Positions 20,211 through 41,037 of a stretch of DNA of 64,000 nucleotides are shown here, piece by piece. This DNA comes from Alphaproteobacteria bacterium (GTDB taxonomy: Bacteria > Pseudomonadota > Alphaproteobacteria > Rickettsiales > UBA8987). Below the pieces are notes generated by a model that worked only from the letters and a program-made list of their open reading frames with translations, had not been told where the DNA came from and ran no database searches. The translations under genes and the position numbers were made by a program. Location of the stretch: positions 5,229 to 69,228 of the forward strand of contig JAUIEX010000002.1 of assembly GCA_030429725.1 (NCBI GenBank). Direction: 5' to 3'. Numbering within the stretch: the first letter of the stretch is position 1; each line of letters starts with the position of its first letter.

Positions 20211-20765
20211 ATGGCATTTGCTGAACAAAACGAAGACGGTATCATTGATAAGCTGGTAGCGATTAATCGCACCGCAAAAGTGGTCAAGGGTGGCCGGCGC
20301 TTTGGCTTTACTGCACTGGTTGTGGTTGGCGATGGTAACGGTCGCGTTGGTTTTGGCAAAGGTAAAGCCAAAGAAGTGATTGACGCTAAACGCAAAGCCT
20401 CTGAAGCTGCCAGAAAATCAATGATCCGCGTGCCGCTACGTGAGGGCCGCACCCTGCATCATGATACGATTGCACGCTCAGGCGCCGGTAAGGTTGTGCT
20501 GCGCGCAGCTCCTGCCGGTACCGGAGTGATCGCAGGCGGGCCGATGCGTGCCGTTTTTGAAGCGCTGGGTGTGAAGGATGTTGTGGCAAAATCAACCGGC
20601 TCTTCCAATGCCTATAACATGGTTCGCGCAACATTTGTGGCTCTCAACAGCATTCAGTCTCCGAAAGCGATTGCCGACCGCCTTAATCGTCGTGTGGGCG
20701 ACCTTATATCCCGCCGGGATGATGGCAGCTCGCATCAGGCAGCTTCTGAAGAAAACGCAGCGTAA
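20211..20765 (+). CDS. rpsE: 30S ribosomal protein S5
   Basis: [41 protein letters not shown]..., 184 aa. Confidence 0.96.
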
Positions 20766-20793
20766 TAAAGATTTTTGACTTAGAGAGATAATC

Positions 20794-20979
20794 ATGGCAA
20801 AAACTCAAACCATTAAAATAACCCAGACTGGCAGCCCAATTGGTCGCCGTAAAGATCAGCGTGCAACGTTGATTGGTCTCGGTCTGAATAAAATGCACCG
20901 TACTGTTGAGGTTGAAGATACAGCTGCAACGCGCGGTATGATCGAAAAAGTACATCACCTGATTCAGGTGGGTGAATAA
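20794..20979 (+). CDS. rpmD: 50S ribosomal protein L30
   Basis: [28 protein letters not shown]..., 61 aa. Confidence 0.95.
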
Positions 20980-21001
20980 TTAAAGCTATATGGAGCTTGC
21001 T

Positions 21002-21526
21002 ATGTCTTCTTTACTCAACACATTATCCGATAATGATGGCGCAACGTATAAATCCAAGCGCAAGGGGCGTGGTATTGGCTCCGGTAAAGGCAAAACGGCA
21101 GGGCGTGGCCTCAAAGGCCAAAAGTCCCGCTCCGGTGTTGCCGTTAAGGGTTTTGAAGGCGGGCAAATGCCTATTTTCCGTCGCCTTCCTAAGCGTGGTT
21201 TCACCAATTATACCCGCAAAGAATTTGAAGTTGTTAACTTTGAGCGGCTGGAACTTTTTATCAGCGAGAAAAAAATAAAAGCCACCGATATCACGCTGCA
21301 AACTTTGAAAGATGCCGGCCTGATAACCGGTGATAAAGATGGCGTTAAGTTGCTTGCCAAAGGTGAACTTAAAAGCAAAATTAGCATCACCGTGGATGCC
21401 GCTTCGGAAGCTGCAAGAAATGCGGTTGAGAAAGCGGGTGGCACGCTGAATCTGACTGAGAAAGCACCCCGGAAAGCTGAAAAGAAAGCAGCCACTTCTA
21501 AGAAATTGCGCCAGACCCGAACCTTC
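21002..21526 (+). CDS. rplO: 50S ribosomal protein L15, with no stop codon of its own (frame continues into secY)
   Basis: GGAG lies 6 nt upstream of ATG 21002. Sequence MSSLLNTLSDNDGATYKSKRKGRGIGSGKGKTAGRGLKGQKSRSG is canonical L15. After ...AVEKAGGTLNL the frame continues TEKAPRKAEKKAATSKKLRQTRTF straight into the SecY Met at 21527. The end coordinate given is only the last codon before secY. Confidence 0.85.
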
Positions 21527-22876
21527 ATGGCACGCTCATCAAAGAACAATCAAGCGTTTGACGTTTCTGTTTTAAGTCAGGCAACCGAGCTGAAGAAGCG
21601 TATTTGGTTTGTTTTGGCGGCATTGGTTATCTACCGCATTGGAACCTATGTTCCGCTACCAAGTGTCGATTCACGTGTTTTAACTGAATTGTTTAAACAG
21701 CAATCCGGTGGCCTGCTTGATATTTTCAATATGTTTTCCGGTGGCGCACTTGGTCGTATGACCATTTTTGCCCTTAATATCATGCCCTATATTACGGTCT
21801 CTATCATCATGCAGTTGATGACGGTGATGTCCCCTGCCCTGACGGCGCTTAAAAAAGAAGGCGAAGCCGGGCGGCAAAAAATCAATCAATATACACGTTA
21901 TGGCACGGTGCTCATGGCGGCCTTTCAGGGTTTTGGTATTGCACTTTTCTTGGAGGGCATGCGCAGCGGCACACAAACGGTTGTCATCGATCCCGGCTTT
22001 TTATTCAGATTAACCACTATTGTTTCTTTGGTTGGCGGTACATTATTCCTGATGTGGCTGGGAGAGCAAATTACCTCTCGCGGTATTGGTAACGGCATCT
22101 CACTGATTATCTTTACAGGGATCGTTGCGGAACTTCCACGCGCCATTGCCGGCACGTTTGAGCTGGGGCGCACCGGCGCATTATCCACGGCCATTATCCT
22201 GCTTGTCATGGTACTGGCGCTTGTGCTTATCGCGTTTATCGTGCTGATGGAGCGTGCTCAGCGTCGTGTTCTGGTGCAATACCCAAAACGTCAGATGGGC
22301 AATAAGCAGTTTGATGGGCAAAGCTCACATCTGCCAATCAAACTTAACCCTGCAGGGGTTATTCCGCCTATTTTTGCCAGTTCGCTTCTTCTCTTCCCTG
22401 CGACAATTTCAGGCTTTGCCTCTTCTCGTGGCGCTGAAATTGGCCCTGTTTTAGAGAATATTGCCCTCTATCTTGGGCATGGCAAACCACTTTATATTCT
22501 GGCTTATGTCAGCCTTATCACCTTTTTCTGCTTTTTCTATGCCAAGCATGTGTTCAATATGGACGATACCGCAGATATGCTGAAGCGCAATGGTGGTTTT
22601 ATTCCTGGCATTCGCCCCGGCGAGAAAACCAAACAATTCTTAGATAAAATCATGAACCGCCTGATTGTCATTGGCGCTGCTTATATTTCGCTGGTCTGTG
22701 TGATTCCTGAAATATTAATTTCTCAATATTCCGTTCCTTTTTACCTTGGCGGAACCAGCCTTCTGATTGTGGTGAATGTTGTTCTGGACACCATGACGCA
22801 GGTTCAATCACATCTTTTTGCACATCAATATGATGGGCTTATCAAGAAAGCTAAACTGAAAGGGAGGCGGCGTTGA
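21527..22876 (+). CDS. secY: Preprotein translocase subunit SecY
   Basis: The 449-aa segment starting MARSSKNNQAFDVSVLSQATELKKRIWFVLAALVIYRIGTYVPLPSVD matches a SecY N-terminus. It is in the same frame as rplO (ORF 20990..22876). Confidence 0.93.
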   Translation: MARSSKNNQAFDVSVLSQATELKKRIWFVLAALVIYRIGTYVPLPSVDSRVLTELFKQQSGGLLDIFNMFSGGALGRMTIFALNIMPYITVSIIMQLMTVMSPALTALKKEGEAGRQKINQYTRYGTVLMAAFQGFGIALFLEGMRSGTQTVVIDPGFLFRLTTIVSLVGGTLFLMWLGEQITSRGIGNGISLIIFTGIVAELPRAIAGTFELGRTGALSTAIILLVMVLALVLIAFIVLMERAQRRVLVQYPKRQMGNKQFDGQSSHLPIKLNPAGVIPPIFASSLLLFPATISGFASSRGAEIGPVLENIALYLGHGKPLYILAYVSLITFFCFFYAKHVFNMDDTADMLKRNGGFIPGIRPGEKTKQFLDKIMNRLIVIGAAYISLVCVIPEILISQYSVPFYLGGTSLLIVVNVVLDTMTQVQSHLFAHQYDGLIKKAKLKGRRR

Positions 22877-23475
22877 CATCTATTATTCTATTTGGCCCTC
22901 CTGGCGCAGGTAAAGGCACTCAGGCCGCTATCCTTATGGATAAGTATGGCATCCCCCAGCTTTCAACCGGAGACATGCTCCGCGCTGCTGTCAGCGCCGG
23001 CACGCCACTTGGCAAGGAAGTGGAAGGGGTGATGAAAGCCGGCGGCCTGGTCTCCGATGAAACTATCATTGCCATGATCGCCGAGCGCATTCAGGACTCT
23101 GATTGTGCCAACGGCTATCTGCTTGATGGCTTTCCACGCACTGCGGCACAAGCCAAGGCACTGGATGAAATGCTCCTGAACAATAGCACGAAAATTGATT
23201 TTATCATTGATATGCAGGTGCCGGATAACGAGCTGAAAAGCCGTTCGGCCAAACGCGCGCAAGAGGCTGTTGCCGCCGGCGAAGAGCCTCGCCCGGATGA
23301 TAATCCGGAAGTGTTTAGCGCGCGTTTACAGACCTATCGTGATCAAACCCTGCCCGTTCTGGACTATTATAGACACACGGCGCAAGGTCGTCTGCACACT
23401 GTGGATGGCACGCAACCTATCGAAACCGTAACAAAATCCATTGAAACAATTGTAAATAATAAAGTGGAAGCGTGA
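22873..23475 (+). CDS. adk: Adenylate kinase
   Basis: IILFGPPGAGKGTQA P-loop, 200 aa. The TTG start overlaps the secY stop (TTGA). Confidence 0.93.
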   Translation: MTSIILFGPPGAGKGTQAAILMDKYGIPQLSTGDMLRAAVSAGTPLGKEVEGVMKAGGLVSDETIIAMIAERIQDSDCANGYLLDGFPRTAAQAKALDEMLLNNSTKIDFIIDMQVPDNELKSRSAKRAQEAVAAGEEPRPDDNPEVFSARLQTYRDQTLPVLDYYRHTAQGRLHTVDGTQPIETVTKSIETIVNNKVEA

Positions 23476-23483
23476 TTTATTGA

Positions 23484-23511
23484 TTGACTTCCGCCAATCA
23501 ATCGTTATGTT
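23484..23511 (+). promoter_or_regulatory. Sigma70-like promoter upstream of rpsM
   Basis: TTGACT (23484..23489), a 16-nt spacer, then TATGTT (23506..23511), in the 76-nt adk-rpsM spacer. Confidence 0.3.
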
Positions 23512-23551
23512 TCGCTCTCTTAATTTTTAAGTCAGTGTAAGGAGAAGCATC

Positions 23552-23917
23552 GTGGCCCGTATTGCCGGTGTAAACATTCCAACGAATAAGCGTATTGAAA
23601 TTGCGCTTACGTATATTTATGGCATTGGCCGCGTGAGCGCGCTGAATGTCTGCCAAAAGGCCGGCATTGAGCCGGGTCTTAGGGTTAATCAGCTTTCTGA
23701 TGATGATGTGATTAAAATTCGTGAAACGATTGACGCGGATTATTCTGTTGAAGGTGATCTGCGCCGCGAAGTATCAATGAATATTAAGCAGCTTATGGAT
23801 CTTGGCTCTTACCGTGGCCTTCGCCACCGTCGCCGCTTGCCGGTTCGTGGCCAGCGCACACATACCAATGCACGTACGCGCAAAGGTAAAGCCAAGCCAA
23901 TCGCTGGTAAGAAATAA
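23552..23917 (+). CDS. rpsM: 30S ribosomal protein S13
   Basis: GTG start, [26 protein letters not shown]... Confidence 0.96.
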
Positions 23918-23950
23918 TTAGATTAAGTTAGTAAGACTGAGGAAATAGTT

Positions 23951-24334
23951 ATGGCTAAACCTGCCGCAAAGAAGAAAATTAAAAAAAGTGTCCCTAAGGG
24001 TGTTGTGCATATCAACTCCACCTTTAACAACACGATTGTGACTGTTACCGACACTTCCGGCAATGCCGTGACGTGGGCAACAGCAGGTGGCTCCGGCTTT
24101 AAGGGCTCACGCAAATCAACACCTTATGCCGCGCAGATTGCTTCAGAAACTGCCGCACAACGCGCCATGGATATGGGCATGCACACTGTGGATGTTAGCG
24201 TTAAAGGGCCAGGCTCAGGCCGCGAATCAGCACTGCGTGCATTACAAACTGTGGGCTTAAACGTTGGCTCAATCGTGGATGTTACCGGCATTCCGCATAA
24301 TGGTTGCCGCCCACGTAAGCGCCGCCGCGTATAA
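23951..24334 (+). CDS. rpsK: 30S ribosomal protein S11
   Basis: [22 protein letters not shown]..., 127 aa. Confidence 0.96.
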
Positions 24335-24370
24335 TTTTTTACAAGATAACCGCTAGAAAAGGACAAAAGA

Positions 24371-25399
24371 ATGTCTTACCAACTCGTAGCAAATAACTGG
24401 CAAGAACTGATCAAGCCAACCAAATATGATGTTAAGGAAAAATCCTCCAATGCGACCGAAGTTGTCGTTGAACCTTTGGAGCGTGGCTTTGGTCTGACAT
24501 TAGGTAATGCGCTGCGTCGTGTTTTAATGTCTTCTTTGCAGGGCGCGGCTGTAACCTCACTGAAAATTGATAGTGTTCTGCACGAATTTTCAACCATTGA
24601 AGGTGTGCAGGAAGACGTTGTAAACGTGGTGATGAACATCAAAAATGTTGCTATTGCCATGCAGGCCGAAGGTCAAAAGCGTTTGACGCTGAAAGCCAAA
24701 GGCCCGTGCATTGTTACCGCCGGCATGATTGAAACTTCAGCTGATATTAAAATCATCAACCAGAACGCCGTTATTTGTACTCTGGATAAAGGTGCTGAAA
24801 TCAACATGGAACTGACGGTGCAAACCGGTAAAGGTTATGTTCCTGCGGATCAGCACAGTAATGAAAAAGGCGAAATCGGCATTATCCCGATTGACGCGAT
24901 CTACAGCCCGGTTCGTAAAGTAAGCTACAAAGTGGATCAAACACGTGTTGGTCAGCGTACGGACTATGACAAACTGACACTTTCCGTTGAAACAGATGGT
25001 TCCATTAAGCCCGAAGATGCCGTGGCCTTTGCCGCTCGCATCCTTCAGGATCAACTGCGTGCCTTCATTAACTTCGATGATATTGAAGTGGCTGAAGTTG
25101 AGAAGAAAGAAGATGGCCCAGCCTTCAACCGCAACCTGTTGAAGAAAGTTGATGAGCTTGAACTTTCCGTGCGCTCAGCAAACTGCCTGAAAAATGATAA
25201 CATTGTTTACATTGGTGATCTGGTGCAAAAGCCGGAATCTGAAATGCTTAAAACACCGAATTTTGGTCGTAAGTCACTCAATGAAATCAAAGAAGTTCTG
25301 GGCAATATGGGACTTAGCTTTGGCATGGATATTGAAGGCTGGCCGCCTGAAAATATTGAAGAATTAGCTAAGAAATTTGAAGACCCATACAGCATGTAA
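24371..25399 (+). CDS. rpoA: DNA-directed RNA polymerase subunit alpha
   Basis: 342 aa, with an N-terminal dimerisation domain and a C-terminal domain ([21 protein letters not shown]). Confidence 0.96.
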
Positions 25400-25428
25400 T
25401 TGCCTTAAGGGTGTGATAGGAGAAGATT

Positions 25429-25866
25429 ATGCGACATCGTATGAAAGGACGTAAATTTAACCGGACAAGTGCCCACCGCGCGGCGCTGCTGCGCAACCTT
25501 GCAGCCAGTTTGATTACGCATGAACAGATCACCACAACATTGCCGAAGGCGAAAGACCTTCGCCCTGTTGTTGAAAAGCTTGTAACACTTGGCAAACGTG
25601 GTGACCTGCACGCACGTCGTCAGGCGCTGGCCTATCTCTATAATGATACTGAAACGGTGAATAAATTATTTGATGCATTAGCCAAGCGCTATGAGTCCCG
25701 CAATGGTGGCTATCTGCGCATCATCAAAGCCGGTTTCCGCTTCGGTGACTCCGCTCCGAAAGCCGTTATTGAATTTGTTGATCGTGATATCACCGCCAAA
25801 GGTACTGAAGACCGTGCACGTCATGAAGCTTTGAAGGAACTGGAAGGCGAGCTGCAAGCCGCTTAA
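25429..25866 (+). CDS. rplQ: 50S ribosomal protein L17
   Basis: [25 protein letters not shown]..., 145 aa. Confidence 0.96.
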
Positions 25867-25882
25867 ACTACTTCGCTTAGAG

Positions 25883-25920
25883 TAAAAAAAAGCCCCTCAT
25901 TGACTGAGGGGCTTTTTTTA
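25883..25920 (+). terminator. Rho-independent (bidirectional) terminator after rplQ
   Basis: A-run, then stem AGCCCCTCA (25891..25899), loop TTGAC, stem TGAGGGGCT (25905..25913), then a run of six T. Confidence 0.85.
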
Positions 25921-25943
25921 TGCCTTCTTCGTATCCTATGCTG

Positions 25944-25972
25944 GAAAAAGCGGCGGCCGCCGGCCGGCGGCC
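25944..25972 (-). terminator. GC-rich palindrome plus T-run downstream of maeB (probable terminator)
   Basis: Perfect 18-nt palindrome GGCCGCCGGCCGGCGGCC (25955..25972). On the minus strand it is followed by GCCGCTTTTTCC. Confidence 0.45.
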
Positions 25973-26009
25973 ACACCCCCAAGTTCTAACCATTTAGTTT
26001 ACCGCAAAC

Positions 26010-28268
26010 TTAGCCGGCACTTGCCAGATCCGCTGCCGCCATCGCTGTCATTGCAATGATCTCCGATACGGATGAATTCATCGGAACAATCTGCGCCGGT
26101 TTATCCAGCCCCAGAAGAATTGGCCCCACTAACGAGCCATTCCCAAGCTCACTGAGTAATTTTGATGAAATATTAGCCGTGTGCAACCCTGGCATCACCA
26201 GAACATTCGCCGGCCCTGAAAGACGGCAGAATGGGTATAAGTCCATCATAGAGTCATTCAGCGCCACATCGGCCATAATCTCGCCTTCATACTCAAAATC
26301 CACATCCATCTTATCTAAGATAGCAATGGCATCCCGAATACGCTTCGATTTATCGTAAAGTGGATTCCCGAAATTTGAGAAGGATAGCATCGCCACGCGC
26401 GGAGTTTGCCCCATAGCACGCGCCGCTGCTGCCGATTGCACGGCAATATTGGCCAGCTCTTCAGGCTCCGGCAGAAGATGAATGGATGTATCCGCCAGAA
26501 ATACCGTCCCCCGGCTTCGCGTGATATACATGCTTAGGCCGAACAAACGATGCTCATCGCGTGGCGGAATAATGCTCATCACACTTTTAAGCGACTGATT
26601 ATAGCTTCGCGTTAAACCCGTGACCAAAGTATCGGCATCCCCCGCTGCCAGCATGCTGGCGGCAAAGATATTCCGATCATTCTTAACCAAACGCACACAG
26701 TCGCGATGCAAATAGCCTTTACGCTGCAACTTTTGATACATGGCTTCAATATACGCTTCATTTTTGTCAGTCTTGGCAGCATTGATCACTTCAATATTCT
26801 CAAGATTCTGCACACCAAGCTTGTTAAACACTTCTTCAATTGGTTTTTCACGGCCAACCAACACAGCTTGACCAAACCCGCTATCACGCCATTCAATGGC
26901 AGCGCGAATGGCGGTTTCTTCCTCACCCTCAGCGAACACAACCTTCTTCGGCTCATCTCGTAACTGACGGTAAATCAGGTTCAGCGTATTAATACTTGGA
27001 TTCAGTCGCGCCTTAAGCTCTGTCTCATAGGCCGAAAAATCTTCGATTGGCTTTTTCGCCACGCCACTATCCATTGCCGCTTTGGCCACGGCAACCGGCA
27101 CGGTATGAATTAAACGCGGATCAAACGGGGTTGGAATAATATATTCCCGACCAAACTCAAGACGCTTACCATACACTGTCGCAACTTCTTCAGGGATAGG
27201 CTTACGTGCCAATTCTGCCAGCGCCCGCGCCGCAGCCACTTTCATTTCTTCGTTAATTGTTGTGGCATGCACATCCAGCGCACCACGGAAAATATACGGA
27301 AAACCAAGTACATTATTCACCTGATTCGGATAATCCGAACGCCCGGTTGCCATAATGGCGTCGTCCCGCACTTCCCGCACTTCTTCCGGACGAATCTCCG
27401 GATCAGGGTTGGCCATTGCGAACACAATCGGGTTCTTAGCCATACTTCCCACCATTTCCTTCGTCACGGCACCGCGCCCGGCCAGCCCATAAAATGCATC
27501 CGCCCCTCTCATGGCATCTTCCAGCGTACGATCCTTAGTCTCAATCGCATGGGCTTCCTTCCACTGATTCATGCCATCGGTGCGCCCTTTATAAATTACA
27601 CCCTGACGATCCACCAGCAGCGCATGCTTCACACCCAATGATTTTACCAGTTCAAGACAGGCAATCCCCGCCGACCCGGCACCAAGCACCACAAGCTTCA
27701 TATCTTCCAGTTTACGCTTGGTCAGATGCGCGGCATTAATAAGCGCCGCCGCCGTAACAATCGCCGTTCCATGCTGATCGTCATGAAAAACCGGAATATC
27801 CATCTTTTCTTTCAACTGACTTTCAATAATGAAACAATCCGGCGCTTTAATATCTTCCAGATTAATGCCGCCCCAGCTTGGACCAAGATATTTAATGGCG
27901 TTAACAAACTCCTCCGGATCTTCGGTATCCACCTCAATATCAATCGCATCAATATCTGCAAAACGCTTAAACAGAACCCCTTTACCCTCCATCACCGGCT
28001 TGGAAGCCAGCGCGCCAAGATTTCCCAAACCCAACACTGCCGTGCCATTGGAGACCACCGCCACAAAATTTCCTCGTGCCGTATAATCATATGCTTTTTC
28101 AGGATTTTTCTCAATTTCAAGGCATGGCGCTGCCACACCCGGGGAATATGCCAATGCCAGATCACCCTGCGTTAAAAGTGGCTTTGTTGCGGCAACCTGA
28201 ATTTTTCCGGGCTTTCCCTGTTTATGATATTCTAGGGCTTCATCATTGGTGTATGTATTGTCTGACAT
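26010..28268 (-). CDS. maeB: NADP-dependent malic enzyme (malic enzyme domain fused to a phosphotransacetylase-like domain)
   Basis: 752 aa. The N-terminal half is malic-enzyme-like (ALEYHKQGKPGKIQV..., VVLGAGSAGIAC Rossmann motif). The C-terminal ~330 aa are PTA-like, the MaeB architecture. Confidence 0.9.
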   Translation of the reverse strand: MSDNTYTNDEALEYHKQGKPGKIQVAATKPLLTQGDLALAYSPGVAAPCLEIEKNPEKAYDYTARGNFVAVVSNGTAVLGLGNLGALASKPVMEGKGVLFKRFADIDAIDIEVDTEDPEEFVNAIKYLGPSWGGINLEDIKAPDCFIIESQLKEKMDIPVFHDDQHGTAIVTAAALINAAHLTKRKLEDMKLVVLGAGSAGIACLELVKSLGVKHALLVDRQGVIYKGRTDGMNQWKEAHAIETKDRTLEDAMRGADAFYGLAGRGAVTKEMVGSMAKNPIVFAMANPDPEIRPEEVREVRDDAIMATGRSDYPNQVNNVLGFPYIFRGALDVHATTINEEMKVAAARALAELARKPIPEEVATVYGKRLEFGREYIIPTPFDPRLIHTVPVAVAKAAMDSGVAKKPIEDFSAYETELKARLNPSINTLNLIYRQLRDEPKKVVFAEGEEETAIRAAIEWRDSGFGQAVLVGREKPIEEVFNKLGVQNLENIEVINAAKTDKNEAYIEAMYQKLQRKGYLHRDCVRLVKNDRNIFAASMLAAGDADTLVTGLTRSYNQSLKSVMSIIPPRDEHRLFGLSMYITRSRGTVFLADTSIHLLPEPEELANIAVQSAAAARAMGQTPRVAMLSFSNFGNPLYDKSKRIRDAIAILDKMDVDFEYEGEIMADVALNDSMMDLYPFCRLSGPANVLVMPGLHTANISSKLLSELGNGSLVGPILLGLDKPAQIVPMNSSVSEIIAMTAMAAADLASAG

Positions 28269-28390
28269 GCTTTGCTATCCTTACTGCCGCGCGGGTTATA
28301 TCATGTTGAAAGATGGCGCAATGTATCAATGCGGATTGAAACTGTAAAGCAGCAGTTGAGACACAAGGGTAAACAGGATAAAAGCAAACC

Positions 28391-31078
28391 ATGTCTGCCT
28401 CTGCCGCTCGCTCAAACACGGAACCCGCTAACGATCTTGCGGCAAATCCATCGGGTATCCCTGCGGAGGCCACCCCAATGATGCAGCAATATCTAACCAT
28501 CAAGGCAAATTACCCGGATTGCCTCCTTTTCTACCGTATGGGAGATTTTTATGAGCTGTTCTTTGGCGATGCAAAAAATGCCGCCGCTGCGCTGGATATT
28601 GCCCTCACACGCCGGGGGCAACATCAGGGAGAGGATATTCCCATGTGCGGTGTGCCATGGCATAGCCATGAAAATTACCTGCATAAACTGATCCGTGCTG
28701 GCTTTCATGTTGCCATTTGCGAGCAAATGGAAGACCCGGCTGAAGCGAAAAAACGTGGTGCTAAATCCGTTGTTAAGCGGGATGTTGTCAGAATTGCAAC
28801 CCCTGGAACATTGCTGGAAGAAGGGTTGCTGCAGGGAACCAAGTCCAATTTTCTGGCAGCGCTCAGCAATATTAAGAAACAGGCCGCCATCGCGTGGCTG
28901 GATATGTCAACCGGGGAGTTTTACACGGAAGTTATGCCGCTTGAACAGGCTGAAAGCACGCTGGCGCGCATTCAACCCACTGAATTGCTTATTCCGGAGA
29001 GCCTATGGCAAAACCAGCTGCTGAATCAGAGCTTAAAGGCAGAAGGCCGCACCATCAGCGCACAGGCGGAGGCTTGCTTCAGCGTTTCTCGCGCTAAACA
29101 ACGCCTCAAAAAAGTGCTCGGCACGGATGAATTGGATGTTTTTGGAGATTTTAGTGATGCGGAGCTTTCCAGTTGCGGCGCTTTGGTTGCCTATCTTGAA
29201 ATAACGCAGAAGGGCTTTTTGCCCCGCCTTGAACCGCCAAAAAAGCAGGCCAATCATGCCATTATGTTGATGGATGCATCCTCCCGGCAAAGCCTGGAGC
29301 TTTTCGCCAACCAGCAAGGGCAGCGCAAAGGCAGCCTGTTGAATGTCATTGATCGCACAAAAACCGCGCATGGTGGCCGCCTCATTCAGCAATGGCTGGC
29401 CGCCCCCCTGATGGATATCACACCTATCAAGGCACGGCAGCAGGCCGTTGCCTTCTTTTTGAGTCATCATCTGGTGCATGAGAAAATTAATACCCAGCTT
29501 GAACACGCACCTGATATGCAGCGGGCAGTTGCTCGCCTTTGCATGCGGCGTGGCGGGCCACGGGATCTGGCCATGGTGCGCGATAGCTTAGTGGTGGCGC
29601 TGAACCTTTCTGAGTGCCTGACCTTTGCTGCAAATGAAGTGCCTCCGGCGCTTCTTGAGCGGCATTTGAAGCATCTCGGCGGCATGGATAGCCTGCGTGA
29701 AATGCTGATATCAGCATTGATTGACCAGCCGCCCATTCTAACACGGGATGGCGGCTTCATCCGCGATGGCTACCACGCCACGCTGGATCATCTGCGCAAC
29801 CTTCATTTTGAGAGTGGCAAAATTAAGCAGGGCTTGGTGGAGCAATACCGTCAGGAAACCGGCATTCAAAGCCTAAAGATTAAAACAAACAATGTCTTAG
29901 GCATGTTTATTGAGGTGTCGCCTCAACATAGCAAAAACATCCCTGAGCATTTTACACACCGGCAAACACTGGCCAATGCAGTGCGCTTTACCACCGAAGA
30001 ACTCCGCACGCTGGAGCAGGAAATGATTACCGCCAGCAGCCAGTCCATGGCATTAGAGCAGGAATTATTTGAAGATTTATGCCGTGAGGTTGAAAATTAT
30101 GCTGCGGAGCTTAATCGCGTGGCGCAGGCTATTGCGACAATAGATGTTCTTGCAAATTTTGCGGCCATCGCCGTCGCCAACCATTACACCTGCCCTCATC
30201 TCACGGATGCCGCGCTGTTGAGTTTGAAAAACTCACGCCATCCGGTGGTGGAATCCCTTAATCATGAAGGTTTTATTCCCAATGATTGTGCGCTGGAAGA
30301 CGATCAGCTCTTATGGCTGATGACAGGCCCTAACATGGCCGGAAAAAGCACCTTCCTGCGACAAGTTGCCCTGATCACCATCATGGCGCAGATTGGCTCC
30401 TTCGTTCCTGCCGAATCTGCCACTATCGGGTTAACTGACCGTATTTTCAGCCGCGTTGGCGCATCCGATAATCTGGCACGCGGGCATTCCACCTTCATGG
30501 TTGAAATGCTGGAAACTGCCGCAATTCTTCATCAGGCAACCAAACAATCGCTTGTTATTCTGGACGAAATTGGGCGTGGAACCGCTACCTATGATGGGCT
30601 GTCTATTGCGTGGGCAGTGCTGGAATATTTGCATAACAATATTCAGTGTCGCGGGCTGTTTGCCACCCATTACCATGAACTAACCCAGCTGGCCGCGCAG
30701 CTTTCTCACGCCGCTTCCTACACAATTTCCGTCAAAGAATGGCAAGGGGATGTGGTGTTTGAACATCGCGTTATACCGGGTGCTGCCGCCCATTCCTATG
30801 GCATACAGGTTGCCAAACTGGCCGGCCTGCCACGCGCCGTAACGGCACGCGCCACCGATATCCTCTTTCAATTGGAAACCTCCGGCTGCGCATCGTTAGG
30901 AAATCAGCTTTCACTTTTCTCCTCACCGATCGAAGAAACCCCCACTCAGCTTCCTGCAGAGCAGGTTAGTCTTAACCCTCTTGCGGGTGAGATTTTAGCT
31001 TTTCTGGAAAGCGTTAATCCGGACGAAATGACCCCGAAAGAGGCGCTGGATGCATTATACCGCCTAAAGTCAATTTAA
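28391..31078 (+). CDS. mutS: DNA mismatch repair protein MutS
   Basis: 895 aa with [31 protein letters not shown] (mismatch-binding domain) and Walker [15 protein letters not shown]. Confidence 0.96.
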
Positions 31079-31149: not shown

Positions 31150-31416
31150 ATGGCTCATCATAAGGCTACACAGAAATCAATTCGTAAAAATGTAAAGCGT
31201 ACGGAGCTTAACCGCGCCCGTAAAACACGCTATCGCAACGCGATTAAGCAAACGCTTCAGGCAGTTGAATCCGGCAGTAAAGATGAGGCAAACCAAGCTC
31301 TTAAATCAGTACAATCTGCACTTGGTCGCGCTCAAGCCCGTGATATTATAAAGAAAAATACGGCTTCTCGTATCCTGAGCCGCCTGAATGCACGGATTAA
31401 ATCCCTCGCCGCTTAA
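31150..31416 (+). CDS. rpsT: 30S ribosomal protein S20
   Basis: MAHHKATQKSIRKNVKRTELNRARKTRYRN..., 88 aa. Confidence 0.95.
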   Translation: MAHHKATQKSIRKNVKRTELNRARKTRYRNAIKQTLQAVESGSKDEANQALKSVQSALGRAQARDIIKKNTASRILSRLNARIKSLAA

Positions 31417-31474
31417 GTAACAGGCAACGCCGGGCATTCTCTCTTTGCGGGGAATGTTTTCTTCAGCTTGCAGG

Positions 31475-32119
31475 CTATCTTTTAATCGCTTTAATTTCTG
31501 TCGTGAATTGCTGCGCTTTCTTATAATCTTCAAGTGCCTTTCTGGATTCACGCGTGCGGATACTTTCAAGCGCCCGGTGCGCACTGTTTTTAACCCAGTC
31601 ATCGTCATCCAACAACAGCCCTGCCAATTGAGGGACAAGCTCAGAGGCGGGTTTTCCAATCCTTCCCAAGGCATTCGCGGTTACTGCCCTGATTTCCGCA
31701 TCGTCATGGTTAATATAGCGCTTTAATGTTGGCAATGCATACACACCAAGACGCCGCATCCGCCCCAGCGCATATATGATATGGATTTCCATTTCTCGCT
31801 CACCTTCTTCCTCACGCAATAATTCTATCAGACGATGAATACCTTCCTTGCCCATATCTTCCAGCCCGTTGATCGCCTTCTCAAACATAACATTATTCGC
31901 TGAGCCAATATTATTGAGGTACATCTGCATGCGGAATTCACGCCGCTGCTCATCGGTAAAACCTTTCTGGGTTGGTGCTTCGGCCGCACGCTTGGCGGCT
32001 TCACTTTGCGGCTTTTCCTCGTCCTCTTCTTCTCCACCATGGGTGGAAGCCAGCACCGTATTCACAGGAGCGAAGGCAAAAAGCCCAACCACTAACAATA
32101 GTCTTATCCATTTTATCAC
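31475..32119 (-). CDS. Secreted HEAT-repeat protein
   Basis: Signal-peptide-like N-terminus (MIKWIRLLLVVGLFAFAPVNTVLAS), an acidic linker, then HEAT/PBS-lyase-type repeats (DAEIRAVTANALGRIG..., DDDWVKNSAHRALESI). The GTG start overlaps the stop of the upstream small ORF (GTGA). Confidence 0.6.
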   Translation of the reverse strand: MIKWIRLLLVVGLFAFAPVNTVLASTHGGEEEDEEKPQSEAAKRAAEAPTQKGFTDEQRREFRMQMYLNNIGSANNVMFEKAINGLEDMGKEGIHRLIELLREEEGEREMEIHIIYALGRMRRLGVYALPTLKRYINHDDAEIRAVTANALGRIGKPASELVPQLAGLLLDDDDWVKNSAHRALESIRTRESRKALEDYKKAQQFTTEIKAIKR

Positions 32120-32349
32120 TTCACCATCCTCCGAATTACCTCCCAGGCTAAGTATAGCATGGTGGGGATCAATGTCGCAATTAAAGCAGCTTTCACCCGC
32201 GTGGTCATAAACTCACTTCCCTGCCGAAGTTTGCGTAAATAGAACAGATCCTGCTGCATCTGCCGTGGCTCATCGGTATCAAAGCCCAGCCCAGACAGTG
32301 TTTCGTGAACAGTTTCATGGATGATCTTTTTCATTTCCTGCTGATTCAT
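32116..32349 (-). CDS. Small protein with a C-terminal transmembrane helix (phage-type, holin-like topology)
   Basis: A strong RBS (GGAGG) lies 4 nt (cgta) before ATG 32349, an internal start of ORF 32116..32412. The 77-aa product has a hydrophilic N-terminus and one C-terminal TM (VKAALIATLIPTMLYLAWEVI). The upstream part of the track ORF is built from a hairpin repeat. Confidence 0.5.
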   Translation of the reverse strand: MNQQEMKKIIHETVHETLSGLGFDTDEPRQMQQDLFYLRKLRQGSEFMTTRVKAALIATLIPTMLYLAWEVIRRMVK

Positions 32350-32457
32350 TACGCCTCCATAGTTTGCAGTCAGCGGTATGCAGTAAGCGGTGCGCCGTTT
32401 TTTATTCGTCATTGCGAGGAGCCATCAAGCGACGAAGCAATCTCCCGCCTCTTGAAG

Positions 32458-32479: not shown

Positions 32480-33373
32480 CTAACTTGGCTGCACCATCAA
32501 CCATGCCACGGTGGAAGCATCCGCCCCGTTGGTGGAGGTGATGGTGAAGGATGTGCCCACCGAACGCGCGGAAATATAAGGCACCCCCACCGTACCCGAG
32601 GGGCTTTGAATGGTCAGATAAATCCGGCTATCCGCCGCTACGGAAGCATTATTCACCACCGCCGTGCCGGAGGAGAGTGTGGCTGTGCCCATATGGGTGT
32701 TGGTATCTTCCTTCACCTTCAGCGCTCCGTCAACATTCACATCCTGCTTAAAATCCACATTACCCGTATCTTTATCCAGCACGAAAGATTGATAAAACGC
32801 GCTGCCATCGGGTGAAACTTTGAAAGAGAAATTATCTTCTCCAATCAGGCCAAATTCCGCTCTGCCGGAAAAATTATTCTGAAATACAAAACTGGCCGTA
32901 TCCGCCGTATCATCCTTGTTCAGCTTCACCTGCACATCATCCCCGTTATGGCTGAACAGAACGGCCGCACTGGCCACGCTCAGCTTGTTTGTGGCATCCG
33001 CCGTGGTGTTGATGCCCACCAGCGCGGCATTCTGAATGTTCTTCGCGGCAAACACCCATGCAGCCCCATCAAAGGCATAGAGCGCATCCTCATCCTTCAC
33101 CCACACGGCCAGCCCCTCATTGGGCTCTACAAACCGCCATATCTGCTCAAAATAGGCCAGCTGGCCTTCCTTCCCTGCCCAATCATCCGTCGCCGAAGCG
33201 CCCACAATATAAGCATCCCCTTCAGCCGGGCTGCCCGGCGGTGTGGCTAAATCCTTATCCTCCACCCCGCGATTCATCAGTGCGTCAATGCGCGTCAGCG
33301 CTTCATTCACCGTCACTTCCTTCTGCGCCTGGCTTTGCGCCACCAGGGCTAAATTCAAATTGGTTGTTGGCAT
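32480..33373 (-). CDS. DUF2793-like phage tail-fibre protein (GTA-associated)
   Basis: AGGAG RBS, then MPTTNLNLALVAQSQAQKEVTVNEALTRIDAL... (conserved N-terminal fibre-attachment-like region), then a Gly/Ser/Thr-rich beta-type C-terminus. ATG 33373 is internal to ORF 32480..33424. Confidence 0.65.
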   Translation of the reverse strand: MPTTNLNLALVAQSQAQKEVTVNEALTRIDALMNRGVEDKDLATPPGSPAEGDAYIVGASATDDWAGKEGQLAYFEQIWRFVEPNEGLAVWVKDEDALYAFDGAAWVFAAKNIQNAALVGINTTADATNKLSVASAAVLFSHNGDDVQVKLNKDDTADTASFVFQNNFSGRAEFGLIGEDNFSFKVSPDGSAFYQSFVLDKDTGNVDFKQDVNVDGALKVKEDTNTHMGTATLSSGTAVVNNASVAADSRIYLTIQSPSGTVGVPYISARSVGTSFTITSTNGADASTVAWLMVQPS

Positions 33374-33384
33374 GGTTTTCTCCT
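33347..33384. repeat. 38-bp direct repeat, copy 1 (RBS plus codons 1-9 of the fibre gene)
   Basis: GGCTAAATTCAAATTGGTTGTTGGCATGGTTTTCTCCT is identical to 34071..34108. Confidence 0.95.
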
Positions 33385-33426
33385 TATGGTGTTTAATACT
33401 TGGTCGTCTTGTGATAAAATCCACTC

Positions 33427-33714
33427 ATGGAACTGCATGATCTTCACTCCCACCGGGATGCAATCCTTCAGCTGGCGGAACGCTACCATGCTGGAAACGT
33501 GCGCGTTTTTGGCTCCGTTGCACGGGCGGAAGCGAGAGATGGAAGCGATATTGACCTACTGGTTCACTTCCTTCCTGGCGCTTCTCTGATGGATGAATCC
33601 GGTTTACAGCTGGCATTGGAAGACATGCTGAAAAAACCCGTAGATGTGTTAGCAGATGATGCCATTCGTCCGGAATTCAAAGCACGCATCCTCAGTGAAT
33701 CCATTCCACTTTGA
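33427..33714 (+). CDS. mntA: Minimal nucleotidyltransferase antitoxin (MntA-type)
   Basis: 95 aa with VRVFGSVARAEARDGSDIDLLV (a GS...D.D nucleotidyltransferase motif). The stop overlaps the next gene's start (TGATG). Confidence 0.8.
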   Translation: MELHDLHSHRDAILQLAERYHAGNVRVFGSVARAEARDGSDIDLLVHFLPGASLMDESGLQLALEDMLKKPVDVLADDAIRPEFKARILSESIPL

Positions 33715-34046
33715 TGGAGAAGATCAACCCGAATTTCTTGCGCCTGAAAGACATGCTGCAAGCGATTGATGATGCCACTTCTGCCCACACACGCGGGCTG
33801 GATGACCGCCACCTGCTGATGGCAGCCTCCTACGCCATCGCCATCATCGGTGAGGGAGCAGGCAAACTTTCCACCGATTTTACCGCACAGCACTCCGCCA
33901 TTCCATGGCGGCAGATTATCGGCATGCGCCACCGCATCATCCACGATTATGGTAATGTAAGCCGCGCCCGCCTGGAAGAGGCAATTATCAGAGATTTACC
34001 CATTTTGAAGCAAGAGATTGAAGAGATTCTCGCATCTGATTTCTAA
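33711..34046 (+). CDS. hepT: HEPN/DUF86 toxin (HepT-type RNase)
   Basis: 111 aa with the R-x4-H motif in MRHRIIHDYGNV. The likely ATG is at 33714. Paired with the upstream nucleotidyltransferase. Confidence 0.8.
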   Translation: MMEKINPNFLRLKDMLQAIDDATSAHTRGLDDRHLLMAASYAIAIIGEGAGKLSTDFTAQHSAIPWRQIIGMRHRIIHDYGNVSRARLEEAIIRDLPILKQEIEEILASDF

Positions 34047-34070
34047 CTGGTTTTTTAGCTCAGTGAAGCA

Positions 34071-34108
34071 GGCTAAATTCAAATTGGTTGTTGGCATGGT
34101 TTTCTCCT
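34071..34108. repeat. 38-bp direct repeat, copy 2 (orphan RBS plus ATG plus 9 fibre codons)
   Basis: Identical to 33347..33384. On the minus strand it opens a 33-codon ORF (33996..34097) antisense to the 3' end of hepT. Confidence 0.95.
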
Positions 34109-34138
34109 GTTTTGGTGATTAAAAAATTCGTCATTGCC

Positions 34139-34292
34139 TAACTCCCCCTTCACGGGGGAGTCTGAATTTTAAGCATTAGCGCATAAATTCAGGTGGGGGT
34201 CATGTCGCTACATCTGAAGGCTGCAAAGAACCCCCACCGGATCACGCATCGTTTCACTCGCGCGCTCCGACTCCCCCGTGAAGGGGGAGTTA
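34139..34292. mobile_element. MITE-like nested-hairpin repeat, copy A
   Basis: Termini are TAACTCCCCCTTCACGGGGGAGTC (34139..34162) and its reverse complement GACTCCCCCGTGAAGGGGGAGTTA (34269..34292). Internal inverted repeats are TGAATTT/AAATTCA and GGTGGGGG/CCCCCACC. Confidence 0.85.
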
Positions 34293-34334
34293 GAGACTAA
34301 AACAAAACTTACTCATTCCTTAATTTTTACTTGC

Positions 34335-34348
34335 AGAGAGAGAGAGAG
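34335..34348. repeat. (AG)7 dinucleotide microsatellite
   Basis: AGAGAGAGAGAGAG lies between TTGCAG (34331..34336) and TATAAT (34356..34361). Confidence 0.95.
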
Positions 34349-34496
34349 TTTAAGTTATAATTAAGGTTCATTTTTAGCTTTGGCTGAAATGAATTAGTGA
34401 GCTTTGCTCACATGTTCTTTCACCGGCTTTTTGTGGCATTCGCCACTTAACGATTAGGAAGCTGGGTCATTTTTTATCACCTAAACTTTTCTTGTT

Positions 34497-34697
34497 ATGA
34501 AACGTATTTGGAACAACCCATTTTTTAGATTTCTAATTTATTTCGTCGGCCTGCAGGCCTTCGGCCTCGGGGCCGTGCGGGTCATTTCTTGGATCGCAGG
34601 CCTAACCCCCGACATGGTCGGGTGGGTCATTTTTTGCTTTATTGCGGGCGGCATCATTGCCCCCATGGCAGTATCATGGGATTTTGATGAAGACTAA
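34497..34697 (+). CDS. Hypothetical 66-aa protein with two transmembrane helices
   Basis: An ATG ORF with two hydrophobic helices (FFRFLIYFVGLQAFGLGAV; VGWVIFCFIAGGIIAPMAV), followed by a long-stem hairpin and a T-run. No family recognised. Confidence 0.4.
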   Translation: MKRIWNNPFFRFLIYFVGLQAFGLGAVRVISWIAGLTPDMVGWVIFCFIAGGIIAPMAVSWDFDED

Positions 34698-34704
34698 TCC
34701 CGCC

Positions 34705-34806
34705 AAACCCTCCCTTCCCATACGGCACCGGGACGCAATCTTGCCGCAGCTTTCAAGCTCGCCGCATGATCGTCCAAACGCCGCAGGGGAAGGGAGGGTT
34801 TTTTTA
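34705..34806 (+). terminator. Long-range hairpin plus T-run after the 66-aa ORF (possible terminator)
   Basis: AAACCCTCCCTTCCC (34705..34719) pairs with GGGAAGGGAGGGTTT (34787..34801) and is followed by TTTTT. The loop is large (about 67 nt). Confidence 0.35.
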
Positions 34807-34844
34807 TGCCCGAAAGAAAAGCTTCTACCCAACTCCCCATCTAC

Positions 34845-35034
34845 TAAACTCCCCACTTGTGGGGGAGTCGAGGTGCGGCCTGTGAGATAAAATCGAGCGC
34901 CGCAACTCGGTGGGGGCTGCAAACTGCAAACCGCTAACTGCAACCCTCTACTCAACTCTCACCGCTCAATGACCCCCACCGGATCACGCATCGTTTCACT
35001 CGCGCTCTCCGACTCCCCCGTGAAGGGGGAGTTA
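34845..35034. mobile_element. MITE-like nested-hairpin repeat, copy B
   Basis: Left end is TAAACTCCCCACTTGTGGGGGAGTC and right end is GACTCCCCCGTGAAGGGGGAGTTA (35011..35034). The right ~60 nt are nearly identical to copy A. It contains a 7-nt periodic stretch (CTGCAAA CTGCAAA CCGCTAA CTGCAAC...). It ends 8 nt before the g15 stop. Confidence 0.85.
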
Positions 35035-35042
35035 AAGGCCAC

Positions 35043-38000
35043 CTAAACACTCACCTCCGCCGGTCGGCCACGCCCAATGCGCTCGGACATTTGATAAATC
35101 TTCACACTCACGCTGCTTTGCGGGCTGCCAAAATCGCTTGTTTGATCCGCAGCGTCATAGCTAACGGATGGAGTGGAGGCACTCAGCGTGCGAACCACAT
35201 CTTCACCGTCCAGAATGTCGATCTCATAGGCTTCGGAGGCCTCCGAAAGCGGCACGTCCACACCATCCCGCCAGCTGCCGCCATGGCGCGTGCGGCGAAT
35301 CCAGCTGATCGTCAGGTTGCCCGCCCCATCACGCTCCCCCGCCACATGCGCAGGTGCATATGGCTTCAGCGCATTGGCATTGTAAGCAAAGCTCTGCGCG
35401 TTGGTTTCTCCCAGTGTTTCACCAATCGAAACCGCCTTATAGAGCCGCGACAGGCCAATCAGCCCATCCGGCATATTCACCTTACCGATGCGGCTATCCA
35501 GCAGCACGAAATCATCCCCTGCCGCATGGCTTACAGTGGCATGCTCCGTGCCCAGCCGCCCGCGCAGCAAGCCACTTAAGCGATATTCACCCGCACTCAC
35601 CAGAGTTGCAGTGGTAAACTGAATCACCTCCCCGCCCAGCAGTGCCGCATTGGCGCCGTTCAGTAATGCCTCCGTAGAAACACTCTCCAGCGTGCCGTTG
35701 GAAAGCAGCACGGTCACATTATTTGCAACATCCATCACACCCGCCGCGCCATCCGCCAGCGCCGTAATGGCTTTGCCCATCACCGCCCGATTATTATTCA
35801 CCAGCACCTGCCCATAACGCGCACCGCCATCGTCCGAGCGATAGAGAATACTGCCCTGCCAGCCGGATTCCTCCCCGCTAACGGCCACCCGCAGCAAAGC
35901 GTCCTCTGCATCATCGCCGGCCAGCAGCGGCACATCCAGCAGCTTCAACCGCGTGGCGCCCGCCGGCACTTCCGCCTGAGTGCTGCCGCTTGTTTCCGCC
36001 GCCGCGGCGTCACTTTCATAAAGCGCCACATCCTCCGCAATGCCTTTGCAACGAAGGCGCCCACCTTCTTCCAGCGTGGTTTCCATAATGCGAATCGTGT
36101 GGCTTTGGCCGTTGCTTGTCACCGTCACCACATCGGCAGGAGAGATTGCCGCATATTTCGGCGGCAGGATAAACTGATAACGCATCCTCGCCGTCCAGGC
36201 CTGACACAGCGCCACATCCGCCGCCATCTTGCCGCGCTCATCCCCCATCACGATCGGGAAATTGATGATATGTTTTTGATCGCTCGCTACGGATTGCCGC
36301 GACGCACGCTGGGTGCCGATCTGATAATCAAAACCCCGGCTGAGGTAATTCACCTCCACCGCTTTGGGCAGATCGGCCTCCTGCCCGCGTGTGATGGCCA
36401 GATGCACCGCCTTTCCACGCTGTTTGAAGGGCACCAATTCATCCTCGGCAATCGTTACCGCAGACGCATTGCCGCGCGGCAGATAGTCCACCTGCCCGTC
36501 TTCTTCCCGCGCATCAAAAAAATACGCTGCCTGAAGCTGCGCAATGGCACTTCGCGCACTCACCGGCTGTTTCAGCACATAGCCTTCCACCAAATCACTC
36601 AGCTTGGTAACATCCATTTCACCACTATTTAAGCCCGCACGCAGCCCAATATCCTGCACAATGGCGGCAAGGGAAGATAACCCCATTTTACCATTCACCC
36701 AATGCCCGGTTTTCCATAATCCGCCATCGGTCCAGATATTTGTCATTTCCGGCCAGAAGGAAAATGGCCGCGCATCCCATGTCCAGACAAATTTTTGCTC
36801 CACCATGGTAGAGCCTTCCCACGCGGTTTCCGTGGCCTGCAACCCTAAACGCTGCGCAGAATTATCCACCCGCCCGCGTGAAAAGCGCGGAAAGTAGCTC
36901 TCCGAACTGGTCGGGTCATAAAACACATTCGGCTGGTTGGTTGCCCCATCTACGGATGGAAAACCATATTCCGTGAACCAGAATGGCTTGGATTCCGGCA
37001 CCCAGGCAGTGGTGCTGGCATCCGGGTTCACATGCTCATTTTCCCAGAACCATTGCAGATTTTTCCACGCATATTGTGGGCTGATCGCCGCCTGCGTCGT
37101 TCGCGCTTCATCCGTATATACCCAGTCATACCCCTCCCCGCTTGTCCAGCCATCAATGGCTTTTTGCAGGGTGATGCCGCTTTGCGGCTCATCCGTCAGC
37201 GGGAAATAGGCATCAATGCCGATAAAGTCGATATTCGCCGAAGCCCAGAGCGGATCAAGATTATACCAGCCATCATCCGTGTGGTGATATTCGCTCCAAT
37301 CCGCAGCATAGGTCACCTTCGTGCCACTACCCACAATCGCCTTTACACTGGCCGCCAAGCTCACCAGCGCGTCCACCGCCGGGAAGGAATCATCCCCACT
37401 ATCCTGCACGGAAGTTAAGCCCACCAGCTCCGAACCAATGACAAACGCATCCACATTCGAAGCATCTGCCAAGTTCGCATAATGCGTTATAAATTCATTA
37501 TAACCATTTGTTTTTGTAAAGAAATTAGCAACATTACTAACGCTCCCCGTCACCCGGCCGCGCCATGGCTTATTTTCCGTATCCATAAAAAACATCGGGT
37601 ACAGCATCACCTGATAGCCCCGGCTTTTCAGCTCCCCTATCAACCGCGCAACCGAAGCATCCGAAGGCGTGCCGCCATAAACCGGGTTACCATTTTCATC
37701 GAGCGAAATTTGCGGTGCGGAGGCACGATCCCAACTGCCCACGCCCCACTGATCCGGCTCTGTTGTCGCGCCATCTTTATATTCCACATAGGGCTTGATC
37801 GTACAGCCCCCGGCGTCCACATCATCCCCAAACCATGTCACCACAACACTCACCCATTCTAGGTTTGGAAAAGTGGCCTCCAGCTGATCCAGCGACGCCA
37901 GCACATCCGCCTTGCCGCTCACATTATTCTGGTTAATGCGCACCTGCTCACCGCTTTCGAAAAAATCATCGCCAATCTGCTGGCCAATCAGTTTTTTCTG

Positions 38001-38693
38001 CACGTTGGTGTCATACACAAACTCCCCGGAACCGGGAATCATCGTCATCGCCGTAATCTGCTCTTCCAGCGGCGCATCACCACTATTAAGCGCAGATTTA
38101 CGCACCTCAAACGTAAAGTTAGGAATACGATTGCCAAATTGCTCAAGCGGAAAATCCTCAATCACCACATACGCCACCCCGCGATAAGCCGGCACAAAAC
38201 CACTACCAAGCTCCGCCTCCATGGCAGAATCCGGCAATTGATCTTCCGTTCCTTTATACAGGCGATAAACACCTGAATAGTCATTGATATTAATGGTTTT
38301 AGCATCCGCCCACACGCGCACCACCTCGTCAATCTCCCCTTCGCAAATCGCAATGGCCAGCGTCACGCTATAGCTATAGCTGGTCTGGGAAACACTGCGG
38401 CCGCTGCCGCCCTTGCCGCTGCCGGATTCTGTCGTCGTAGCACTTTCCATAATCGGCTTAGACCAGATCACATTGCCCGCCACACGCGCCGTGCCATAAA
38501 GCTGCGGCACCATGCGGCCATAGGTGGAGGTTTGCACCTGCAAATCTTCCAAGCGCGGGCCTTCCACCACCAGCTTCTGCCCGGGCAACACACCCAGCGC
38601 AGTATCAATCTGCGCGCCCAGCTGAATGCCTTGCAGCGCAAGGCCAATATCCCCCGAAGCCGCTCCTGCTGCGCCTAATACAAGTGTAGTCAT
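35043..38693 (-). CDS. GTA g15-type host-specificity / baseplate protein
   Basis: 1216 aa. The N-terminus (PRLEDLQVQTSTYGRMVPQLYGTARVAGNVIWS...SYSYSVTLAIAICEGEI) and the central glycoside-hydrolase-like region are typical of RcGTA ORFg15 homologues. It is in the last structural gene position. Confidence 0.85.
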   Translation of the reverse strand: MTTLVLGAAGAASGDIGLALQGIQLGAQIDTALGVLPGQKLVVEGPRLEDLQVQTSTYGRMVPQLYGTARVAGNVIWSKPIMESATTTESGSGKGGSGRSVSQTSYSYSVTLAIAICEGEIDEVVRVWADAKTININDYSGVYRLYKGTEDQLPDSAMEAELGSGFVPAYRGVAYVVIEDFPLEQFGNRIPNFTFEVRKSALNSGDAPLEEQITAMTMIPGSGEFVYDTNVQKKLIGQQIGDDFFESGEQVRINQNNVSGKADVLASLDQLEATFPNLEWVSVVVTWFGDDVDAGGCTIKPYVEYKDGATTEPDQWGVGSWDRASAPQISLDENGNPVYGGTPSDASVARLIGELKSRGYQVMLYPMFFMDTENKPWRGRVTGSVSNVANFFTKTNGYNEFITHYANLADASNVDAFVIGSELVGLTSVQDSGDDSFPAVDALVSLAASVKAIVGSGTKVTYAADWSEYHHTDDGWYNLDPLWASANIDFIGIDAYFPLTDEPQSGITLQKAIDGWTSGEGYDWVYTDEARTTQAAISPQYAWKNLQWFWENEHVNPDASTTAWVPESKPFWFTEYGFPSVDGATNQPNVFYDPTSSESYFPRFSRGRVDNSAQRLGLQATETAWEGSTMVEQKFVWTWDARPFSFWPEMTNIWTDGGLWKTGHWVNGKMGLSSLAAIVQDIGLRAGLNSGEMDVTKLSDLVEGYVLKQPVSARSAIAQLQAAYFFDAREEDGQVDYLPRGNASAVTIAEDELVPFKQRGKAVHLAITRGQEADLPKAVEVNYLSRGFDYQIGTQRASRQSVASDQKHIINFPIVMGDERGKMAADVALCQAWTARMRYQFILPPKYAAISPADVVTVTSNGQSHTIRIMETTLEEGGRLRCKGIAEDVALYESDAAAAETSGSTQAEVPAGATRLKLLDVPLLAGDDAEDALLRVAVSGEESGWQGSILYRSDDGGARYGQVLVNNNRAVMGKAITALADGAAGVMDVANNVTVLLSNGTLESVSTEALLNGANAALLGGEVIQFTTATLVSAGEYRLSGLLRGRLGTEHATVSHAAGDDFVLLDSRIGKVNMPDGLIGLSRLYKAVSIGETLGETNAQSFAYNANALKPYAPAHVAGERDGAGNLTISWIRRTRHGGSWRDGVDVPLSEASEAYEIDILDGEDVVRTLSASTPSVSYDAADQTSDFGSPQSSVSVKIYQMSERIGRGRPAEVSV

Positions 38694-38854
38694 AGAGAAT
38701 CTCTGTGGTTAAAAGTTAATTATTTTTTATATAACGCCATGCAAAGCGGCGTAACTTTAGGCATTCCCTGCACGCACCAATGCAAAAAAGCCTTTTATAT
38801 AAATGACTTGAAAAAAAAAACGATCTGTTAGAATTAAGTTACAATCTTTTGAAT

Positions 38855-40778: not shown

Positions 40779-40821
40779 TGAAGTCCATTCATCGTTAAAA
40801 GTGAAGTGATCGTAGCATCAT

Positions 40822-41032: not shown

Positions 41033-41037
41033 CAGCC

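Follow-up and report, generated by a model that had tools for sequence, protein, structure and literature searches.

Within the window, by which we mean the whole 64,000-nt stretch of DNA analysed, the genes rpmD, rplO, secY and adk lie in that order, which is shared by the loci of the two nearest relatives found (L001 and L002). An earlier sequence-only reading had claimed that L15 and SecY share one frame of 624 codons without a stop, and both the ORF list and direct reading of the sequence agree with this: the frame is uninterrupted from the ATG at 21002, which is preceded by GGAG 9 nt on its 5' side, to the TGA at 22874-22876. An earlier ATG, at 20990, gives a product of 628 aa for the same frame, with the same end at 22876. 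The fused frame comprises a complete L15 (rplO), a linker of 24 residues and a complete SecY. The L15 part scores 154.1 bits against TIGR01071 (cutoff 77.95), with residues 5-149 aligned to positions 2-143 of the 144 in the model, and 69.5 bits against PF00828; the SecY part scores 395.5 bits against TIGR00967 (cutoff 253.6), with residues 198-609 aligned to model positions 1-413 of 414, and matches PF00344 over its full length (1-306 of 306). Both halves are ordinary members of the uL15 and SecY families. The parts of the rplO-secY-adk unit are as follows:

21002..21505, plus strand: rplO (uL15), 168 codons according to the conspecific contigs; matches TIGR01071 and PF00828; product identical to P0126 (168 aa)
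within 21002..21505, plus strand: C-terminal tail of the rplO product, TEKAPRKAEKKAATSKK, 17 residues, K/A-rich, as in P0126
21499, plus strand: first record-specific base, T in the window and C in both other assemblies (TCT versus TCC, Ser/Ser, synonymous)
21506..21508, plus strand: position of the rplO stop, TAG in L115 and L116, TTG (Leu) in the window
21509..21526, plus strand: rplO-secY spacer, cgccagacccgaaccttc, 18 nt, no Shine-Dalgarno (SD) motif; identical and non-coding in L115 and L116
21527..22876, plus strand: secY, 449 codons plus TGA, intact; matches TIGR00967 and PF00344; product 73% identical to P0005
22873..23475, plus strand: adk, with a TTG start overlapping the secY stop (GTTGA) and GGGAGG upstream; normal downstream end of the unit

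A protein search centred on the junction returned P0126, a 168-aa L15 that is identical to residues 1-168 of the window product and derives from two independent sequencing runs, SRR24442552 (contig L115) and ERR3428548 (contig L116). The former is an Illumina HiSeq metagenome from a shrimp biofloc aquaculture system (PMC10582022); a literature search on the latter found no paper. Over the 1,628 bp that correspond to 20286/20287..21913 of the window, both contigs align with zero gaps and two mismatches, at 21499 and 21507. At the second of these positions L115 and L116 have A and the window has T, such that AAG AAA TAG in the contigs reads AAG AAA TTG in the window. In the contigs rplO ends at this TAG and is followed by the 18 intergenic nucleotides and then by secY at the same ATG. 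The window L15 has no stop of its own to mark it as a separate polypeptide, whereas the L15 of L115 and L116 has one, in the TAG at the equivalent of 21506.

SRR24442552 supplied two other contigs that match the window at 100.000% identity, L117 over 23463..29169 (5,707 bp) and L118 over 34976..39284 (4,309 bp). The comparison thus consists of 20286..21913, 23463..29169 and 34976..39284, with 21913..23463 lying outside it, and yields gapless agreement at 11,642 of 11,644 bases. Part of this identical sequence was retrieved through look-ups of exact proteins; when the genes concerned are set aside, ~7 kb remain and the conclusion is the same. Exact look-ups of the EF-Tu and Adk proteins gave no match, nor did those of SecY by itself or of the fused ORF in its 628-aa and 624-aa forms. 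At this level of identity, L115-L118 and the window represent one strain. The fused frame is due solely to the A-to-T difference at 21507. A single base can fuse the genes because the 18-nt spacer is a multiple of three and contains no in-frame stop; in the fused frame of the window, 21509..21526 is translated as RQTRTF. The two mismatches are 8 bases apart, a spacing that has a probability of ~0.0014 under uniform scatter, and both record-specific differences are changes to T. Two differences within 9 bp and none elsewhere in 11,644 bp point to one local event or error.

These contigs also bear on where L15 ends and on how its stop came to be missing. L15 had been taken in the sequence-only reading to end normally at ...AGGTLNL, but the L15 of the same strain elsewhere runs on to ...TEKAPRKAEKKAATSKK, at 168 aa; that end was placed too early, since the tail is normal L15 sequence and not read-through. 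Among artefacts, the same reading put first the gain or loss of one base during assembly near 21445-21456, where TGA triplets stand out of frame. Such triplets are indeed present, at 21447, 21453 and 21457. L115 and L116, however, are gapless over the 1,628 bp, the L15 proteins agree in full up to residue 168, and the TAG of the contigs (21506-21508) lies 50 nt downstream of the TGAs, all of which refutes an indel at that place. What survives of the idea is that a fault in a single base suffices to remove the normal stop; the fault is a substitution, A to T.

An evolved and functional L15-SecY fusion, or a programmed recoding event in which a frameshift leads to an out-of-frame TGA or TAA, with the ribosome being tethered to the translocon, was also considered. 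The open frame itself and the out-of-frame stops at 21447, 21453, 21457, 21478 and 21499 are what speak for it. However, an ordinary TAG is present elsewhere in the same strain, making recoding unnecessary; by eye there is no canonical X XXY YYZ slippery heptamer in 21440-21526 and no stimulatory structure near 21440-21500; the RNA of the junction folds less stably than shuffled sequences do (z = +1.13); and the frame-0 tail to ...SKK is the real L15 tail, such that a shift to the earlier out-of-frame stops would truncate L15. The surveyed junctions and proteins, moreover, contained no conserved clade of fusions. We therefore regard an evolved fusion or recoding as very improbable.

The survey of scripted loci covered 84 in total, namely 80 species-representative genomes (among the matches listed) and L001-L004; the genome contig scan returned, among the matches listed, no relative above ~64% identity, and a junction-specific query of metagenome contigs found no conspecific sequence. 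The rplO stop is present at 82 of the 84 loci and is lacking only in L003 and L004, which are ridden with errors. The rplO-secY spacers span 0 to 222 nt across the surveyed loci. Where metagenome junctions have both genes in the same frame the stop is kept in every case (13 of 13), including some that read '...KKN*MSSEN', in which the stop abuts the secY ATG and one substitution would fuse the genes. Altogether ~95 junctions were inspected (82 + 13) and the stop was missing in none. One locus, L059, was flagged as fused by the junction script; this was an artefact, its L15 stop being at 3457. The comparison with close relatives that the sequence-only reading had put forward as a check shows the nearest relatives and the surveyed genomes keeping the rplO stop save for the frameshifted contigs. 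Because no lineage has lost the stop, although one substitution would often be enough, it evidently appears to be under strong selection elsewhere.

The L15 proteins of the surveyed genomes (L001-L084) are 145-227 aa in length, with the extra length, in those relatives whose sequence was read, consisting of a lysine/alanine-rich C-terminal tail. Long K/A-rich L15 tails are usual in Alphaproteobacteria. In the two nearest relatives, whose SecY is 72-73% identical to that of the window, L15 measures 174 and 186 aa and ends in a K/A-rich tail.

Other full-length L15-SecY single ORFs were limited, among the best matches in 5.8 billion proteins, to P0003 and P0004. Like the window, the contigs that encode these have one L15-SecY ORF in which the stop is unread, but they are full of broken genes, whereas the window has no others and differs by a clean substitution. 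In L003 (P0003; ENA contig_105737) rpoA is in three pieces, L18 is truncated, S5 is over-long (253 aa) and no separate L30 is called; in L004 (P0004; ENA ctg343928_5x_l), the name of which carries '5x' coverage, S5 is in two pieces, L18 is absent, and S8 and L6 are shortened. Six further proteins from the junction-centred query (P0122-P0125, P0128 and P0129), as judged from the proteins alone, are cut off inside SecY or have their parts in scrambled order. P0001 and P0002, which by length resemble fusions, are in fact SecY duplications or misassemblies (SecY-SecY, 612 and 832 aa). Public metagenome assemblies thus contain spurious L15-SecY and SecY-SecY ORFs alongside split rpoA and rpsE, with frameshift-ridden contigs feeding odd 'architectures' into databases. 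A literature search found no report of an rplO/secY fusion.

An evolved fusion would be expected to recur in related genomes of good quality; instead the 82 loci and the 13 same-frame junctions keep the stop. A genuine evolved L15-SecY fusion, one of the options of the sequence-only reading, thus finds no support, given the TAG in two data sets of the strain and the stop in every other intact genome inspected. Natural fusions of the Rosetta-stone type, which arise by loss or read-through of a stop, are formally the same event, i.e. a change from stop to sense ahead of an in-frame, stop-free spacer; those that have evolved are conserved in clades, whereas the fusion of the window is absent even from other samplings of its strain. 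Because the same strain keeps the stop in two other data sets, the stop-codon difference can be regarded as private to the window record and not as an evolved fusion, and the L15-SecY fusion is not a normal product of this bacterium.

The normal arrangement is that of two genes, with rplO terminating at TAG (21506-21508), an SD-less spacer of 18 nt and secY starting at the ATG at 21527. This matches the canonical spc-operon junction of Escherichia coli and most bacteria in gene order and, in the conspecific contigs, in having separate genes with a short spacer; in contrast with it, the rplO stop of the window reads TTG and both genes are in one frame. The presence of adk directly after secY in the window is as in many Alphaproteobacteria. 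The ATG at 21527, which is in frame, begins the product MARSSKNNQAFDVSVLSQATELKKRIWF... (N-terminus MARSSKNNQ...) and is the orthologous secY start, as alignment with the starts of P0005 and P0008, the nearest SecY proteins, shows. The lack of a Shine-Dalgarno sequence ahead of it, reported in the sequence-only reading, was confirmed by a scan of the preceding 22 nt (attgcgccagacccgaaccttc), which contain no GGAG/GAGG/AGGA-type motif; such a motif is present for 21 of the 28 operon genes. The spacers of the nearest relatives are also short (L001, 3990..4000, 11 nt; L002, 3981..4000, 20 nt) and have no SD recognisable by eye.

The SD-less secY of the window, behind its short spacer, is probably translated by coupling to rplO, with ribosomes that terminate on rplO probably re-initiating at secY, and the junction sequences suggest that secY may depend on termination-reinitiation in this lineage. 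Such coupling fits both the local RNA around the junction, which is less stable than shuffled sequences (z = +1.13) and hence unstructured, and the polar effect of an amber mutation in E. coli, rplO215, which lowers SecY by ~70% (PMC2063957). At the other end of secY, the secY-adk junction (22873..22876), with a strong GGGAGG before the TTG, is another coupled junction in the operon.

In the window record alone, the middle base of the stop is T and not A (TTG for TAG), together with a synonymous difference 8 nt upstream, and that single base joins rplO and secY into the 624-codon frame. How the T came to be in the record depends in part on how error-prone the record is. Approximately 30 of the larger ORFs over the 64 kb were compared with Pfam and give end-to-end family matches, 19 of them reaching both ends of the profile exactly. 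Examples include AcrB (5-1017 of 1021), all five domains of MutS, a malic enzyme with PTA, ParE/GyrB, HisF and, from a gene transfer agent, the portal, capsid and terminase. In the str, S10, spc and alpha operons every gene for a ribosomal protein is of normal length, the gene map is compact and regular, and no split or truncation was found among the ~30 large ORFs tested. Because the rest of the window is intact, the stop-less junction is an isolated anomaly within it. Abutting pairs of ORFs at 31306..32412, 33427..34046 and 51081..51590 were tested as split genes and none was found to be one. A suspected split rpoC (ORFs 135..1199 and 1177..4320) proved by Pfam to be an intact HlyD-type adaptor and AcrB-type pump, i.e. 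an ordinary overlapping pair. The two genes of this RND efflux pair, with which the window begins on the left (135..4320, plus strand), overlap by 23 nt.

The reading that we consider probable is that the T at 21507 misrepresents the organism: it may be an error of sequencing or of the consensus, or the assembler may have picked a minor haplotype. The record is at odds with both other samplings of the strain, the differences are clustered and both are to T, and the stop appears strongly selected elsewhere. Against this, the window is otherwise of high quality, with random errors being rare, and if it was built from Illumina data, as was the matching biofloc sample (PMC10582022), two linked substitutions fit a real haplotype better than read errors.

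Alternatively, the record may describe a real stop-loss mutant, with the sequenced strain or the dominant population carrying TTG. Every ribosome translating rplO would then read via LRQTRTF into secY to give a 624-aa L15-SecY polypeptide. Internal initiation at 21527, without an SD, would be the sole source of free SecY, and proteolysis that of free L15. Such a variant would have arisen recently and, though tolerated, would probably be deleterious. The N-terminus of SecY is cytoplasmic and, because of this, an L15-SecY fusion is topologically possible. L15 tails that bring the protein to between 145 and 227 aa suggest that its C terminus tolerates extensions, the remainder of the window is without assembly defects, and the linked synonymous change is what a multi-nucleotide mutation or a separate haplotype would give. 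The identical fused ORF is also called as one gene, P0241, on a 78,409-bp contig of an NCBI assembly, which is most probably the record of the window itself, the source then being a draft assembly. These points have to be set against the TAG in two other samplings of the same strain and against the absence of stop loss from every other lineage, though a single substitution would be enough in many. Further, the fusion would make no sense stoichiometrically, since cells produce far more ribosomal protein than SecY; surplus SecY is toxic or degraded, and for these reasons an obligatory 1:1 fusion should be costly. Finally, there are no other differences in 11.6 kb, so very little time would have been available for the variant to spread. 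A stop-loss mutant is accordingly the less likely of the two readings.

Were the T real, there would be no free L15 but an obligatory L15-LRQTRTF-SecY polypeptide, and the coupling of rplO and secY would be lost. It is rather improbable that the T is both real and dominant in the living strain, such that all L15 is made as the 624-residue L15-SecY, or the cell relies on some form of processing or on internal initiation. If this were true, the strain would be a natural experiment in which the cell survives a covalent link between a protein of the large ribosomal subunit and the translocon. A real and dominant variant would be a curiosity with respect to tolerance of ribosome-translocon tethering; nothing found supports its being both. 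For the reading in which the T is unrepresentative, the value of the case lies mainly in quality control, because P0241 is a probable annotation artefact and a false "L15-SecY fusion" could spread to databases and domain-architecture surveys. The rplO-secY junction is fragile where spacers are short, in frame and stop-free, in that a change of one base is enough to merge two essential genes; even so, every intact junction inspected retains the stop.

The window also carries a complete RcGTA-like gene transfer agent (GTA) cluster on the minus strand (32480..51262), the Pfam-assigned members of which are:

49838..51262, minus strand: GTA terminase
47711..48976, minus strand: GTA portal
45394..46584, minus strand: GTA capsid
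41038..41640, minus strand: GTA DUF2460 protein
39936..40778, minus strand: GTA baseplate hub
35043..38693, minus strand: GTA TIM-barrel protein
32480..33424, minus strand: DUF2793/K1-lyase_C protein

Inside the cluster, on the plus strand, is a toxin-antitoxin pair of the MNT/HEPN type, with a nucleotidyltransferase (33427..33714) and a HepT-like RNase (33711..34046). On either side of the pair stands one copy of a perfect 38-nt direct repeat (33347-33384 and 34071-34108) that takes in the SD of the DUF2793 gene and its first codons, and the region 33347..34108 looks like a cassette insertion with target duplication. Several copies of a REP-like hairpin, CTCCCCCGTGAAGGGGGAG, follow (34138-65, 34266-93, 34847-77 and 35008-34). 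The same region has a direct repeat of 83 nt (34230-34312 and 34972-35054), exactly where the Logan contig L118 stops. Between the hub and DUF2460 genes, on the opposite strand to them, lies a tRNA-Arg(CCT) (40822..40898, plus strand). An RTX-repeat protein (51660..53417, minus strand), with 10 HemolysinCabind stretches and resembling serralysin-C, adjoins parE.
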